A stretch of 24,000 nt of DNA, taken from NCBI RefSeq assembly GCF_003688555.1, contig NZ_REFR01000009.1:805187-829186 (forward strand), read 5' to 3'. The notes beneath the pieces were generated by a model. It ran no database searches. It was not told where the DNA came from and worked only from the letters and a program-made list of their open reading frames with translations. Within the stretch, counting starts at the first letter, position 1, and the number at the start of each line of letters is the position of its first letter. The position numbers and the translations under genes were made by a program. Source of the stretch: Eilatimonas milleporae (GTDB lineage: Bacteria > Pseudomonadota > Alphaproteobacteria > Sphingomonadales > Kordiimonadaceae). Positions 10,974 to 15,357 of the stretch are shown piece after piece.

Positions 10974-11420
10974 CTAGCCGGCCCAGTCCTGGCCGGGACC
11001 ACCTTCGCCGGGGCCGTCCGGGGCCTGATCCTGCTGGTCCTGCTCCGGCCCGCCATGGGTCGGTTTTCCCTTGCCGGGGTCATTACCGGCCGGGGGCGTC
11101 TGGGGTGTTATGGTGCCGGTGTTCGCCAGTTCGATGATCTTGGCGATCTGATCGACCGACGACGTGTTCTGCAACAGCGTGCCGATACTGTTCACGGCAT
11201 CCTGCGGGGCATTCTCGGCCATGTTGGACAGGGCCTTGCTGGCCATGGCGTTCAGAATGGTGAACATGGACTGCTGCAGGGCCGCCGTGTTCTGCATCAT
11301 CAGGGCGAATGTCTGGGCCGCCGCGCTGCTGATGATGGCTTTTTCCTCATGTCCGGCTCCCCGGATCACCCAGTTTTCATGATCTGCGGTCTTCGTGTTT
11401 TCAACGCCTTTGATGGACAT
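10974..11420 (-). CDS. hypothetical protein, possible distant Reb-like core with a low-complexity G/P/D/Q tail
   Basis: 148 aa, last gene of the reb operon. MMQNTAALQQSMFTILNAMA parallels IQNATANQQNMNTIDTGV of the RebB paralogs. The C-terminus is PPAGNDPGKGKPTHGGPEQDQQDQAPDGPGEGGPGQDWAG. Confidence 0.55.
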   Translation of the reverse strand: MSIKGVENTKTADHENWVIRGAGHEEKAIISSAAAQTFALMMQNTAALQQSMFTILNAMASKALSNMAENAPQDAVNSIGTLLQNTSSVDQIAKIIELANTGTITPQTPPAGNDPGKGKPTHGGPEQDQQDQAPDGPGEGGPGQDWAG

Positions 11421-11466
11421 TTTGGTTTCCCTATGTTGCTTGTTGTCTGGTTAAAAGCGAGTGCCG

Positions 11467-11796
11467 TCAGCCGCGCCCCGTGGGCCTGGCGGCCGCCAGC
11501 AGGTCAGCCGTGTTACTGGCGACCGGATTCCCTGAAAAAACGGTATCCAGGCCGCGAACGGTCGTGGCTGAATCAATGCTCATGATCAGGTTGACCGCCT
11601 GGGTGGTGACGCTGGTCCCCACAGCATAAAACTGGTGCTGATTGGCGACGGCATTCTGGATCGCCATGCCGGCGGAATTCCCGAATGTCTGATACTGGCT
11701 GGCCAACGCCTGCGCCGGGGCCTCACCCAGAACCTTGAGGTTTACCTGGGTGACAGCGTCTGTCATCTGGCCATTCACGAGGGTTGGGTCTGCCAT
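11467..11796 (-). CDS. rebB: RebB-family R-body (killing trait) protein
   Basis: MADPTLVNGQMTDAVTQVNLKVLGEAPAQALASQYQ....IQNAVANQHQ matches the RebA/B/D family pattern (N.QITD.VTQ.N.KV.G.APA...., QNA.ANQQ). GGAGA RBS. Confidence 0.85.
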   Translation of the reverse strand: MADPTLVNGQMTDAVTQVNLKVLGEAPAQALASQYQTFGNSAGMAIQNAVANQHQFYAVGTSVTTQAVNLIMSIDSATTVRGLDTVFSGNPVASNTADLLAAARPTGRG

Positions 11797-11859
11797 TTTG
11801 TGTCTCCATCAGAAAAAGGGCGGAGACCACGGCGCACTGGACGCCGTGGTCAGGATTGA

Positions 11860-12186
11860 TCAGCCCGGGAAGCTGGCCAGCGTGGCCTTGAGCTGGGCAA
11901 TCGTCTCGGCAACCGCATTGCCGGAGAAGATTTCATTCGTACCCCGGGCCCCTGCCGCGATCGGCATGGTGTAGAGCAGGTTGATCGACTGGGCGGTGAC
12001 GCCGGTATCGATCGTGTTCATGTTCTGCTGGTTGGCTGTCGCCGTCTGAATGCCGAGACCGGTCGAGTGCCCGGCCACCTGATACAGATTGCCGAGAGCC
12101 TGGGCCGGCGCGTCGGCCAAAACCTTCACATTGGCCTGGGTCACCGCATCGGTGATCTGACCATTGACGAGTGTTGTATCCGCCAC
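11860..12186 (-). CDS. rebB: RebB-family R-body protein
   Basis: GTG start with AGGAGA RBS. (M)ADTTLVNGQITDAVTQANVKVLADAPAQALGNLYQVAGHSTGLGIQTATANQQNMNTIDTG. Highly similar to the 12261 and 13160 copies. Confidence 0.88.
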   Translation of the reverse strand: MADTTLVNGQITDAVTQANVKVLADAPAQALGNLYQVAGHSTGLGIQTATANQQNMNTIDTGVTAQSINLLYTMPIAAGARGTNEIFSGNAVAETIAQLKATLASFPG

Positions 12187-12260
12187 GGGACGTCTCCTAT
12201 CGTTTGGCCCTCGCGGTTTTTCGCGTCACCGCGAGAGCGGATGAAAATGACTGTCAGGAT

Positions 12261-12584
12261 TTAGGAAAAGGATGAGACAGTCGTTTTGAGAGAGGCGATC
12301 AATTCAGCCAGCGAGTTGCCTGAGAAGACTTCGTTGGTGCCGCGCGCATCGGCTGCCACCGGCATGGTGTAAATCAGATTGACGCCCTGGGTGGTCACAC
12401 CGGTGTCGATGGTGTTCATGTTCTGCTGGTTGGCCGTGGCATTCTGGATGCTGAGACCCGTGGCATGGCTGGCGACCTGATAGAGATTGCCGAGAGCCTG
12501 GGCCGGCGCGTCGGCCAGGACTTTCACATTGGCCTGGGTCACCGCATCGGTGATCTGGCCGTTTACGAGTGTTGGATCTGCCAT
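12261..12584 (-). CDS. rebB: RebB-family R-body protein
   Basis: MADPTLVNGQITDAVTQANVKVLADAPAQALGNLYQVASHATGLSIQNATANQQNMNTIDTGVTTQGVNLIY. AGGAGA RBS. Confidence 0.88.
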   Translation of the reverse strand: MADPTLVNGQITDAVTQANVKVLADAPAQALGNLYQVASHATGLSIQNATANQQNMNTIDTGVTTQGVNLIYTMPVAADARGTNEVFSGNSLAELIASLKTTVSSFS

Positions 12585-12665
12585 TTTTTCTCTCCTTTGA
12601 AGGTATGGATGAGAGCGGTCGGCATGGGGGCTCTCACATGTGGGGGCCGGACGGTGTCAGGTCTT

Positions 12666-13091
12666 TCACGTCGTTGAGAAAGACATGCTTTCGCTGGAGT
12701 CCGAGACTACGGTTTGACCGGGTATCCGCTGTTCGCGGCGTCTGGTTCCCTGTGTCATCAGACGGTTGCTGTTGACCATTTCCCGCAAGCTGACCAGCTG
12801 GGCGAGATACTGGACCAACGGATTTCCGGTAAGGGCGTCATTGAAACTGCGGCCGGATATGGCGGCACTCAGACCCAGAATCTGATTCACGGACTGCGCC
12901 GTGGTCGACAGACTGAGGGTCGAGAGATGCTGCTGATTGGCGAGCGCATTCTGAACGCCCAGGGACGACGTATGCCCGGTGGACTGCATCTGGCTCGCGA
13001 GAGCCGAACTGGGGGCGAGCCCCTGAACACCAAGGGTGGCCTGTGTGACAGAATCGGTAATCTGTCCATTGGTCAGTGTCGGATCAGCCAT
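12666..13091 (-). CDS. rebB: RebB-family R-body protein with an extended basic/Ser-rich C-terminal tail
   Basis: MADPTLTNGQITDSVTQATLGVQGLAPSSALASQMQSTGHTSSLGVQNALANQQHL. It has about 35 extra C-terminal residues relative to its neighbours. Confidence 0.8.
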   Translation of the reverse strand: MADPTLTNGQITDSVTQATLGVQGLAPSSALASQMQSTGHTSSLGVQNALANQQHLSTLSLSTTAQSVNQILGLSAAISGRSFNDALTGNPLVQYLAQLVSLREMVNSNRLMTQGTRRREQRIPGQTVVSDSSESMSFSTT

Positions 13092-13966: not shown

Positions 13967-14161
13967 GATTCGTCCTCCGACTGGCAAGCCGACCTGTCAG
14001 CGCCCCGGCGGGCTGTGATCCCCCGCATCAGGCATGTCAGCGTGTTGAATTCAAAGTCGTGGGTTAGACGGTCGAGCGCGGCAGTTGTGACAACGCAGAT
14101 GGGCCGGCACTCTGAACGAGACCAGCCAAGCCATTGAAAAGAATAAATTTATTTTTTATGT

Positions 14162-14187
14162 GCGCCGGCGGAAAATTCCGCCGGCGC
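14162..14187. other. perfect 10-bp GC stem with 6-nt loop (GCGCCGGCGG aaaatt CCGCCGGCGC) next to an AT-rich patch in the 245-bp intra-operon gap
   Basis: Read directly. Flanked at 14137-14160 by gaaaagaataaatttattttttatg. On the minus-strand RNA the hairpin is followed by an A-rich run, not a U-run, so it is not a canonical terminator. Confidence 0.5.
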
Positions 14188-14211
14188 AACCGGCAATAGT
14201 TCAGAGAGCGG

Positions 14212-14727
14212 TCAGCCGGACAGTGTTTTCAGGAACTGAATGACCACTTCGGCAATGGTGACGACGATGCCGACGGCGGCGTCGGCGCCGATGCCGACTT
14301 CCTCGACCGCGGCAATGAAGGATGCGATCATGCCAAGCAGGGCCATGGCATCCCCTTCAACGCCGGCAAGCGTGTTCTTGTTGGCGAGAATAGTGCTGTT
14401 CAGGCCGGACTGACCGAGGCTGATGGCATCATTCAGGGCGGACTGGCCAAGACCGATGGTGTTTGTCAGCATGGCTTTGTTGGTGCCCATCTCGGCGATC
14501 AGATTGTTCATCTGCGAGGCCATGACCTGCATCTGGTTCACAAGAATACCGGCTGACGTGGTGGCAATGGTGTTGGTGATGTTGTTGGATATCACCGCAT
14601 TTTCCATTGCCTGCCCGGAGGACTGGGCGGTGAATTGCTGTAACAGACTGGTTGTCCAGGCCGGCACATCGCCGATCACCTTGAGATTTGTGTCGGACAC
14701 CGACTGGACGATATCAGGAGACGGCAT
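14212..14727 (-). CDS. divergent RebB-like protein fused to a repeat-containing, hydrophobic C-terminal extension
   Basis: The N-terminus IVQSVSDTNLKVIGDVPAWTTSLLQQFTAQSSGQAMENAV aligns by eye with ITDAVTQANVKVLADAPAQALGNLYQVAGHSTGLGIQNAT. It is followed by LGQSALNDAISLGQSGLNS repeats and MALLGMIASFIAAVEEVGIGADAAVGIVVTIAEVVIQFL. AGGAG RBS. Confidence 0.65.
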   Translation of the reverse strand: MPSPDIVQSVSDTNLKVIGDVPAWTTSLLQQFTAQSSGQAMENAVISNNITNTIATTSAGILVNQMQVMASQMNNLIAEMGTNKAMLTNTIGLGQSALNDAISLGQSGLNSTILANKNTLAGVEGDAMALLGMIASFIAAVEEVGIGADAAVGIVVTIAEVVIQFLKTLSG

Positions 14728-14860
14728 GATGCACTCCTTGCGTTATGAGATCCTGTCCGCGTGCACTGCCCCATCCAATGCGGATATTTGTCCGTGACAG
14801 GCCTGTTATGGCCATGAAGGGCAACATGAAGGGAATGGAAAGAGAAGCGCTCGCAGCGTT

Positions 14861-14894
14861 ATGGGAGAAAAGGCCCGGACACTGTTCGGTCCGG
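14861..14894 (-). terminator. weak candidate attenuator/terminator after the first operon gene (6-bp stem CCGGAC/GTCCGG, 8-nt loop, then GCCUUUUCU)
   Basis: Stem at 14875-14880 and 14889-14894. On the minus strand a U-rich tract follows at 14861-14874. Lies about 10 nt downstream of the 14905 stop. Confidence 0.3.
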
Positions 14895-14904
14895 AGATCC
14901 TGTT

Positions 14905-15357
14905 CTATTCCCCCTCGTCACGGGCAAGACGCTTGACCAGTTTCAGAATCTCATGAATTTCAACGGCTTCGCGACGCTCACGCCGTTCGACCGGAGGCAT
15001 GTAATCCGCCAGAAGGCGCTCATGGTCCAGCGACAGGATTTTCGCGGCCGCCGCGCCGGTGACCGCCAGCTGTTCGGTCGCGATCAATTGCTGTTCGCGG
15101 ATGGCGCCCAACTGCATCAAAAAGTTCGTAATCGGGTTGGAATAAGAGGAGGAGCTTGATGCGAGTGTCCGCAGAAAAACATCTTCCGTCGTCGACGTGG
15201 CCAGGTCCGCGTCACGGATTTCGACATTTTCGATTTTGTCGATGTAAATGGTGGCACCGTTCTCGATGGACTCATTAATCGTGGTGTTGATGTCCGTGTC
15301 TTCCTCGGTTTCCTGGACGGAGTCCACATTTAGTTGTTTCGTTGATTTGCTGGTCAT
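14905..15357 (-). CDS. hypothetical acidic protein, first gene of the reb operon
   Basis: 150 aa. The N-terminal half is rich in D/E/T/N (VQETEEDTDINTTINESIENG). The C-terminal part is helical-looking (QLGAIREQQLIATEQLAVTGAAAAKIL, possibly remotely Reb-like). G+C is about half in the two 60-nt lines I counted (15181-15300), below the flanking genome. Confidence 0.6.
   Translation of the reverse strand: MTSKSTKQLNVDSVQETEEDTDINTTINESIENGATIYIDKIENVEIRDADLATSTTEDVFLRTLASSSSSYSNPITNFLMQLGAIREQQLIATEQLAVTGAAAAKILSLDHERLLADYMPPVERRERREAVEIHEILKLVKRLARDEGE

Follow-up and report, generated by a model that had tools for sequence, protein, structure and literature searches.

The question raised by this stretch of Eilatimonas milleporae DNA (24,000 nucleotides (nt), hereafter the window) is whether the tandem run of small RebB-like genes near its centre constitutes a complete R-body (reb) locus, and whether so many paralogs in one operon are out of the ordinary. 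Positions 10514–16588 very probably form a complete and intact R-body module, and the module type, judged from sequence comparison, appears common to Azospirillaceae (Rhodocista, Skermanella), an Acetobacteraceae metagenome-assembled genome (MAG), Oceanibacterium, and Sneathiella. Roles for the individual paralogs can be proposed by analogy with studied systems, with far less confidence.

Nine co-oriented open reading frames (ORFs) occupy positions 10974–15357 of the minus strand, exactly where a sequence-only reading of this DNA had placed them, and none contains a frameshift or premature stop. The RebB ('killing trait') family is represented by Pfam PF11747, for which a gathering cut-off of 24 bits was applied to the whole-protein score. 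In this profile search seven of the nine proteins pass, at 33–99.5 bits, and the six canonical ORFs, of 104–141 amino acids (aa), score 53.5–99.5 bits; the search had been proposed as a check on the RebB identity of these six ORFs, and that identity holds. With a degenerate eighth relative at the tail, the earlier picture of a single reb operon containing many paralogs and divergent members is likewise sound. The features of the module, read from the divergent regulator gene to the end of the operon, are:

15881–16588, plus strand: gene for an extracytoplasmic function (ECF)-type sigma-70 factor, divergent from the reb operon; TIGR02937, 52.7 bits (cut-off 42.9)
15358–15880, no strand: divergent intergenic spacer, 523 nt; lowest 300-nt GC 18%, against a window average of 60%
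14905–15357, minus strand: leader gene, first gene of the operon; 150 aa, net charge -12; no PF11747 match
14874–14895, minus strand: terminator-like hairpin, 7-bp stem with five G-C pairs, then CCTTTTCTCC; from a pattern scan, a consensus match only
14212–14727, minus strand: long secondary Reb gene; 171 aa; PF11747, 33 bits, residues 6–67 only
13652–13966, minus strand: reb1; 104 aa, GTG start; PF11747, 88.9 bits
13160–13510, minus strand: reb2, major-type copy 1; 116 aa; PF11747, 97.8 bits
12666–13091, minus strand: reb3, divergent canonical copy with a charged C-terminal extension of ~40 aa; 141 aa; PF11747, 53.5 bits
12261–12584, minus strand: reb4, major-type copy 2; 107 aa; PF11747, 99.5 bits
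11860–12186, minus strand: reb5, major-type copy 3; 108 aa, GTG start; PF11747, 86.0 bits
11467–11796, minus strand: reb6, QMTD variant without a QQ motif; 109 aa; PF11747, 83.0 bits
10974–11420, minus strand: tail secondary Reb gene; 148 aa, C-terminus rich in Pro, Gly, Asp, and Gln; PF11747, 11.5 bits (E 0.33), sub-threshold
10514–10792, minus strand: helix-turn-helix (HTH) gene, last gene of the module; 92 aa, HTH plus leucine zipper, IS3 OrfA-like; Pfam HTH_Tnp_1, 58 bits

The canonical genes carry the marks expected of structural Rebs. Primary Rebs are diagnosed by QITD between two prolines, KxxxD/E, NAV, and QQ(Q); they contain almost no Cys, Trp, or Phe, and their domains 1–3 are poor in charged residues (Dorr et al. 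2026). All six canonical copies of the window contain QITD or QMTD, four have both flanking prolines, four have KxxxD/E, and five have QQ; NAx motifs also occur in this set. Cys is absent from all nine proteins of the array and Trp from the six canonical copies, each of which has 2–6 charged residues among its first 80. The array also qualifies as a reb cluster, defined as at least three reb homologs at one locus (Dorr et al. 2026): the seven genes that pass the PF11747 cut-off, together with one transitive homolog, fall within 3.8 kb of the same strand.

The bounds of the module emerge from a census of GTDB representatives, one genome per species, which was scanned with an alignment of the six window paralogs and gave 72 loci. 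In about 30 loci the array is accompanied by the sigma factor gene, the HTH gene, and the AT-rich spacer, and the nearest loci (L006–L010) retain the same order: divergent sigma factor, one or more secondary Rebs, canonical Rebs, tail Reb, and HTH gene. None of the window's flanking genes recurs beside the 72 related loci, except for distant TonB-receptor matches in two Stenotrophomonas loci. Thus the conserved unit runs from the sigma factor gene to the HTH gene (10514–16588), and the earlier bounds of 10974–15357 are too narrow, since they omit both of these genes.

Individual genes within the operon are well formed. From leader to tail the intergenic gaps measure 177, 245, 141, 68, 81, 74, 63, and 46 nt; those between canonical copies (141, 68, 81, 74, and 63 nt), together with the 46 nt from the last copy to the tail gene, reproduce the 46–141 bp spacing reported in the sequence-only reading. 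Each gene of the array has a GGAG/AGGAG-like motif 5–10 nt 5' of its start, in keeping with the claim that each possesses its own Shine-Dalgarno sequence. GC content at third codon positions (GC3) is 0.67–0.80 across the array. Two start candidates exist for reb1, GTG at 13966 (104 aa) and TTG at 13987 (111 aa); the former is most likely correct, because GGAGGA lies directly 5' of it and the 104-aa protein is called on five independent metagenome contigs.

Is an array of this size exceptional? It had been described as on the large side, and that description holds for one way of counting and fails for the other. Counts were compared across the 48 loci with full 10-kb flanks, using a Reb hidden Markov model (HMM). 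Matches to it number six or seven, the modal range, in 37 of the 48 loci and eight in three; the window has seven, and its closest loci (the Acetobacteraceae MAG, Rhodocista pekingensis, Skermanella, and Oceanibacterium) have 7–10. Strongly scoring canonical copies number six in the window, four or five in most loci, and at least six in 2/48, a comparison that favours the window because the HMM was built from its own paralogs. The total Reb count is therefore normal for the clade, and only the canonical count lies at the upper edge. Published surveys show a similar breadth: Reb homologs number 1–9 per genome, with nine in Marinomonas mediterranea and six in Rhodospirillum centenum, for which R-bodies have been observed (Raymann 2013), and 471 taxa have clusters of at least three reb genes, in which a single group is commonly represented more than once (Dorr et al. 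2026).

The window has six canonical copies where its relatives have four or five because the major-type Reb has been triplicated. In a neighbour-joining tree of the canonical Rebs of the window and five related loci, reb2, reb4, and reb5 fall together in a clade that has L006 10001 (Acetobacteraceae MAG) and L007 10001 (R. pekingensis), one gene per locus, as its sister. The ortholog of reb1 is the first canonical gene of the nearest loci, with which it clusters (L006 7965 and L007 9106), and reb3 and reb6 group with the last canonical genes of L006 and L007. These two loci are 79% and 77% identical to the window in the major Reb, respectively, and have eight Reb-HMM matches each, but contain one major-type Reb where the window contains three. 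The three copies share 88–89% protein identity, against 43% between reb3 and reb2. Similarity at the DNA level stops at the boundaries of the coding sequences, and a DNA repeat family, D1, supports reb4 as one of the copies. Pairwise synonymous divergence (dS) of 0.40–0.91, with a ratio of nonsynonymous to synonymous divergence (dN/dS) of 0.08–0.13, indicates that the triplication is old and lineage-specific and that each copy has been kept by selection. The same Reb type has expanded independently in Skermanella. The phylogeny against other reb loci that had been suggested as a check traces the extra copies to reb2, reb4, and reb5.

Contigs identical to the window also exist among short Logan and ENA metagenome contigs (L001–L005). 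In all five independent short-read assemblies that carry the 171-aa gene, the contig breaks off within the tandem reb genes or just ahead of them; two TARA-labelled marine assemblies are among these exact matches, and such breaks are as expected for repeated genes. Because every one of the five ends at this point, counts of such arrays from MAGs are likely to be systematically too low.

The second local peculiarity is found at the head of the operon. The position of the leader gene is occupied in related loci by a secondary Reb of 130–170 aa (130–140 aa in L006 and L007), whereas the window has an unrelated 150-aa protein there. The leader is acidic, as described earlier. It matches no Pfam, NCBIfam, PHROG, or PADLOC family, and an exhaustive phmmer search over 1.84 billion representative proteins found nothing beyond its own cluster (98% identity). 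The idea of a hidden Reb gained no support: hhalign gives a probability of 0.2% against the canonical profile and 1.5% against that of the first-position secondary Rebs, and the A4 HMM of the latter group gives 7.3 bits, with no significant Reb signal. An AlphaFold2 (AF2) single-sequence model is uninformative, with a mean confidence (pLDDT) of 43.6. A GC3 of 0.67, above the overall GC of 0.54, and gene calls on four metagenome contigs favour a real gene, which appears from these searches to be a true ORFan. Profile search of the window revealed no remnant of a first-position secondary Reb. The hairpin at 14874–14895, 10 nt past the leader stop codon, is a possible attenuation point ahead of the structural genes. 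Replacement of the usual first secondary Reb by this ORFan and the major-type triplication are the only two local peculiarities of the array.

The remaining two divergent genes have counterparts elsewhere. The 171-aa gene had been taken for a RebB-like fusion; it is RebB-like, but it is not a fusion with a second known domain. The protein is one of a conserved group of long secondary Rebs. Its positional orthologs are L006 7276–7824 (E 4e-27), genes in L008, L009, and L010, and, in the Sneathiella loci, the second gene. Alignment with them reveals a Reb-like N-terminal domain with a QFAAxSSGLAMENAV core, a middle Ser/Ala/Gly(/Asn)-rich repeat of varying length, and a conserved C-terminal amphipathic helix, GLTADA...AIAE. 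The 148-aa tail protein matches its positional ortholog L006 10887–11333 (E 3e-10), which itself scores 51 bits on the Reb HMM, and reaches 19.4 bits when scored with the profile built from first-position secondary Rebs. It is counted on these grounds as a degenerate member of the Reb family, and its Pro-rich C-terminus recalls secondary group S2 (Dorr et al. 2026).

The regulatory genes at either end of the module recur with the array. The sigma factor scores weakly, below cut-offs, against Pfam Sigma70_r2 and r4_2. Orthologs (E 1e-30 to 7e-44) lie divergent beside a reb array in 26 independent loci; two more distant matches, in L046 and L073, and three exact-match contigs bring the total to 32 sources including the window. 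Residues 1–65 are not conserved in the orthologs and contain a short direct repeat, RQNHTALRQNHTTL (15881–16080). As the orthologs are conserved only from about residue 65 onward, translation may in fact start downstream of 15881; the AT-rich intergenic region would then be longer. The ECF group ECF237, of ECF-type sigma-70 factors with regions 2 and 4 only, has several RebB genes as neighbours (Casas-Pastor 2021); the sigma factor of the window, of ECF type and with eight adjacent Reb-family genes, is a candidate member. Pfam scans recognised no anti-sigma factor next to the sigma factor gene.

The spacer between this gene and the operon presumably holds the promoter and operators for both. 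The Sneathiella-type loci and L009 have a comparable AT-rich dip (19–33% GC) in the corresponding spacer, and the dip is weaker (44–58% GC) in L006, L007, L008, and L010; L006 and L007 have spacers of 213–555 nt with 46–48% GC, compared with 523 nt and 18% GC in the window. In the Sneathiella-type loci L011–L036 a perfect or near-perfect palindrome, CACTTTTAAAGTG, is found once per locus (for example, L019 7629–7641), with two near-matches in L036, and always within the AT-rich spacer that separates the sigma factor gene from the first reb-like gene. In the Sneathiella clade this sequence is a candidate operator for a dimeric regulator. Within the window spacer, matches to sigma-70-like hexamers are not above chance for AT-rich DNA, and the repeats are indistinguishable from AT-rich low complexity.

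The HTH gene could be mistaken for a fragment of an insertion sequence. Its ORF extends over 10514–10933, with the 92-aa core starting at 10792, and the protein aligns to positions 4–80 of the 369-position NCBIfam IS3 transposase model at 35.7 bits (cut-off 160). An IS3 remnant or insertion was rejected on three grounds. First, orthologs directly follow the last reb gene in 27 other loci. Second, dN/dS is 0.06–0.14 in unsaturated pairs, indicating purifying selection. Third, a Pfam search of the window ORFs identified no DDE or rve ORF adjoining the gene. It appears instead to be a domesticated regulator-like gene, and the protein is presumably a regulator of the locus. A match at 66 bits to the PADLOC model 'DrmC' (PDLC02590, 88 positions) probably means that the model has taken in a small OrfA-like protein, and it is not read as evidence of DISARM defence. 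Canonical DrmC is a larger nuclease of the phospholipase D (PLD) family.

The module can be compared with two syntenic groups described previously. Group 2 loci combine HP2.1, HP2.2, the sigma factor HP2.3, and the cyclic nucleotide monophosphate (cNMP)-binding regulator HP2.4 (Raymann 2013). The window shares the sigma factor (15881–16588), by adjacency only, but has an HTH_Tnp_1-type protein in place of a Crp-type cNMP regulator; a Pfam scan of 29 window ORFs found no cNMP-binding or Crp domain. Group 1 loci, as in Azospirillum brasilense and Stenotrophomonas maltophilia, contain HP1.1 (about 360 aa), HP1.2, HP1.3 (about 170 aa), and HP1.4 (Raymann 2013). HP1.3 and HP1.4 are distant Rebs, and in these loci four canonical Rebs are followed by short and long distant Rebs, for 6–7 family members per locus. 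The window has a distant Reb of 171 aa. In Group 1 loci the long Reb has a Pro-rich C-terminus, and the window's 171-aa protein aligns with the long Reb of the Azospirillum, Stenotrophomonas, and Curvibacter loci in the N-terminal domain only, at 15–19% identity. We take the Pro-rich long Reb of the Azospirillum and Stenotrophomonas loci to be HP1.3 of Raymann 2013. By phmmer, no sigma factor or HTH ortholog lies within 10 kb of the Reb match in Group 1 loci, and the window module has no conserved partner of ~360 aa resembling HP1.1. The OrfA-like type of terminal regulator appears to be new, being absent from the partner list of Raymann 2013, and Dorr et al. 2026 set non-Reb partners aside. 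With their predicted roles, this regulator, the very AT-rich control region, and the first-position ORFan are the modestly new points of the locus.

A plausible working of the module can be outlined. The ECF sigma factor and the small HTH protein would control transcription from the AT-rich 523-nt spacer, as suggested by conserved synteny and by analogy with FecI2 and RcgA of Pseudomonas aeruginosa PA14. The operon would yield nine small proteins, among them the six canonical and two secondary Rebs. The reb2, reb4, and reb5 products may supply the bulk subunit at higher dosage, and the older, more divergent reb1, reb3, and reb6 could encode non-redundant minor subunits, with the 171-aa and Pro-rich 148-aa Rebs as putative factors that nucleate, assemble, or cap the ribbon. 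Such a split into major, minor, and assembly components is proposed because it parallels the type 51 R-body and the partial paralog redundancy in Azorhizobium. Within the cytoplasm the subunits would polymerise to give a rolled ribbon that is insoluble in detergent, and a trigger such as low pH would extend the ribbon into a long tube that ruptures the membranes of a eukaryotic grazer or host; both steps are established for Caedibacter R-bodies.

The three characterised systems agree with this outline in different respects. The type 51 operon of Caedibacter taeniospiralis (rebA, rebB, rebC, and rebD on plasmid pKAP298) resembles the window in its tandem small PF11747 paralogs and in a major/minor subunit logic. 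RebA and RebB are the major components of type 51 R-bodies and RebD a minor one, and RebC guides assembly without being incorporated. Whereas Caedibacter has three Reb paralogs and the non-homologous RebC, the window has eight Reb-family genes, an apparently chromosomal location, and a sigma factor and HTH regulator of its own.

The PA14 cluster (rebP1, rebP2, rebD, rapA, fecI2, and rcgA), with three Reb genes and RapA, shares with the window an ECF-family sigma factor encoded in the cluster and a second transcription regulator, which is RcgA in PA14 and the 92-aa IS3 OrfA-like protein in the window. FecI2 and RcgA are both required for activity of the rebP1 promoter. RcgA is presumably the Group 2 cyclic-nucleotide-binding regulator HP2.4 of the Raymann scheme.

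The Azorhizobium caulinodans operon (rebAZC1-4, AZC_3784/5/7, and rebR) is likewise alphaproteobacterial, ends with a regulator gene, and includes non-Reb ORFs of narrow distribution. It has four Reb genes, of which some are redundant (rebAZC1 or rebAZC2) and others essential; RebR is a Crp-Fnr activator and PraR a repressor of the operon. The paper that describes it does not use the term 'sigma', whereas the window has an ECF sigma factor.

Several points weigh against the reading of 10514–16588 as a working R-body module. No R-body has been observed for the source organism, and the paralog roles are drawn from analogy; phylogeny cannot tell which paralogs of other taxa correspond to Caedibacter RebA, RebB, and RebD (Raymann 2013). 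No RebC-like factor is recognisable in the window, although no search aimed at RebC was made. The spacer yielded no ECF-type promoter motif, and the palindrome of the Sneathiella-type loci is absent from the window at up to three mismatches. The first gene of the operon is an ORFan. Finally, the L006/L007 locus type is assumed to be the same as the six-copy locus of the R-body producer R. centenum; the comparison was made with its proposed congener R. pekingensis only.

Of these, the RebC result also bears on the alternative that survives best, namely that the Rebs form a non-classical structure, such as another cytoplasmic filament or scaffold, or interact with the ECF sigma factor as its partners or targets. 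A function other than R-body formation has been suggested for sigma-associated Rebs by Casas-Pastor et al., and no anti-sigma factor is recognisable next to the sigma factor gene; in addition, a search of a copy of the PDB found no solved structure of any Reb relative. RebC, however, has no homologs in any taxon beyond Caedibacter anyway (Dorr et al. 2026), and PA14 and A. caulinodans make R-bodies from clusters without it. R. centenum, with its six Reb copies, produces visible R-bodies, and the diagnostic Reb motifs of the window are retained under purifying selection. A non-R-body role is accordingly an unlikely explanation of the array, and a classical R-body remains the preferred one.

Somewhat more doubtful still is the interpretation offered in the sequence-only reading, in which the paralogs encode several alternative R-body variants rather than one polymer of major and minor subunits. 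The three paralog lineages do differ in age, there is room for internal promoters in the gaps of 141–245 nt ahead of reb1 and reb2, and the hairpin after the leader gene resembles a terminator. Yet the genes are co-oriented with short gaps, and a pattern scan detected no terminator-like site within the array; moreover, the same paralog lineages are co-inherited as a block across distant genera, which fits obligatory co-assembly, and both A. caulinodans and Caedibacter need several Rebs together for one functional R-body. A set of variants is therefore improbable, and the single polymer of major and minor subunits is retained as the proposed product. Least credible of all, and very hard to sustain, is a silenced, horizontally acquired passenger unused by its host, with neutral duplications as extra copies: its chromosomal context is common to none of the relatives, an 18%-GC promoter region in 60%-GC surroundings is typical of the DNA to which xenogeneic silencers bind, and reb expression is stringently repressed or stochastic in studied systems, but the nine reading frames are intact, dN/dS of about 0.1 at dS 0.4–0.9 implies long-term selection on each triplicated copy, and the GC and GC3 of the reb genes equal the host background, so that acquisition was not recent.

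The genes beyond the module were examined for possible membership. On the left, a 218-aa ORF (9824–10480, minus strand; probably 211 aa from M8) lies 33 nt 3' of the HTH gene on the same strand. It has a marginal match to Pfam EndoU_bacteria (26.0 bits, cut-off 25.3), a word-indexed search of 5.8 billion proteins found no relatives beyond its own cluster, and its AF2 model (pLDDT 32) is unusable. The next ORF (8855–9820, minus strand; 321 aa, or more probably 279 aa with M43 as the start) is a member of a large family of uncharacterised proteins of ~280 aa, with 1107 matches and no Pfam domain. In two other genomes examined, members of this family stand in unrelated contexts, not beside reb, and are followed by a small gene of 116–128 aa, as the window ORF is by the gene at 8503–8838 (minus strand). 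The C-terminal pattern of the 321-aa ORF, NNCYAYA...DYHWYRQD...SHKPG, gives the impression of a Cys/His hydrolase. Both 9824–10480 and 8855–9820 were rejected as module members, as neither gene occurs in the 72 related reb loci.

Farther out, the left flank (228–8356) encodes an acyl-CoA ligase, an amidohydrolase, a major facilitator superfamily (MFS) transporter, a TonB-dependent receptor, and an Lrp/AsnC regulator. The right flank (16651–23994) is a sugar-nucleotide/polysaccharide set with two NAD-dependent epimerases, a phosphoglucose isomerase (PGI)-like protein, a nucleotidyl transferase, ManC, and a MethyTransf_Reg-domain protein. A UDP-glucuronate-epimerase-like protein in the flank is at most 67% identical to anything, with matches across Sphingomonas, Kordiimonas, Ferrovibrio, and Tistrella. 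Known plasmids gave only short matches, of about 100–240 nt, to the manC gene, and Rfam and tRNA scans of the window found nothing. A scan of IMG/VR viral contigs with the reb alignment found no relative of the array. The reb2 product (13160–13510) and the 171-aa protein (14212–14727) match phrog_32040, a family of unknown function, at E 8.5e-22 and 7.9e-07, respectively; Reb-like proteins thus exist in some phage or prophage records.

A broader proposal is that the module in this clade has an undescribed control circuit of its own, in which an ECF sigma factor, a domesticated OrfA-like HTH protein, and an AT-rich operator replace the Crp-type regulators of Pseudomonas and Azorhizobium, and that the bracketing, lineage-specific ORFans of 150 aa and 218 aa are cargo or toxin candidates. 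Taken as a whole, it is a speculative proposal that is probably incorrect. If it were true, the leader and the downstream 218-aa protein would be candidate R-body-associated cargo or toxins, and an RNase cargo would offer a link to the ribosome cleavage, so far unexplained, that is associated with the reb cluster of PA14.

R-bodies rank with the largest known protein actuators that respond to a stimulus, and they are in development as membrane-breaking delivery devices. How labour is divided among Reb paralogs, and which toxin, if any, an R-body delivers, are current questions of the field. The present locus leaves the overall picture unchanged, adding one more multi-paralog reb operon, and it draws notice to the conserved pair of a sigma factor and an OrfA-like HTH protein. 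With three near-identical major Rebs, three old and divergent ones, and two secondary Rebs in one operon, it also offers a natural test case in which dosage could be separated from composition by deletion.

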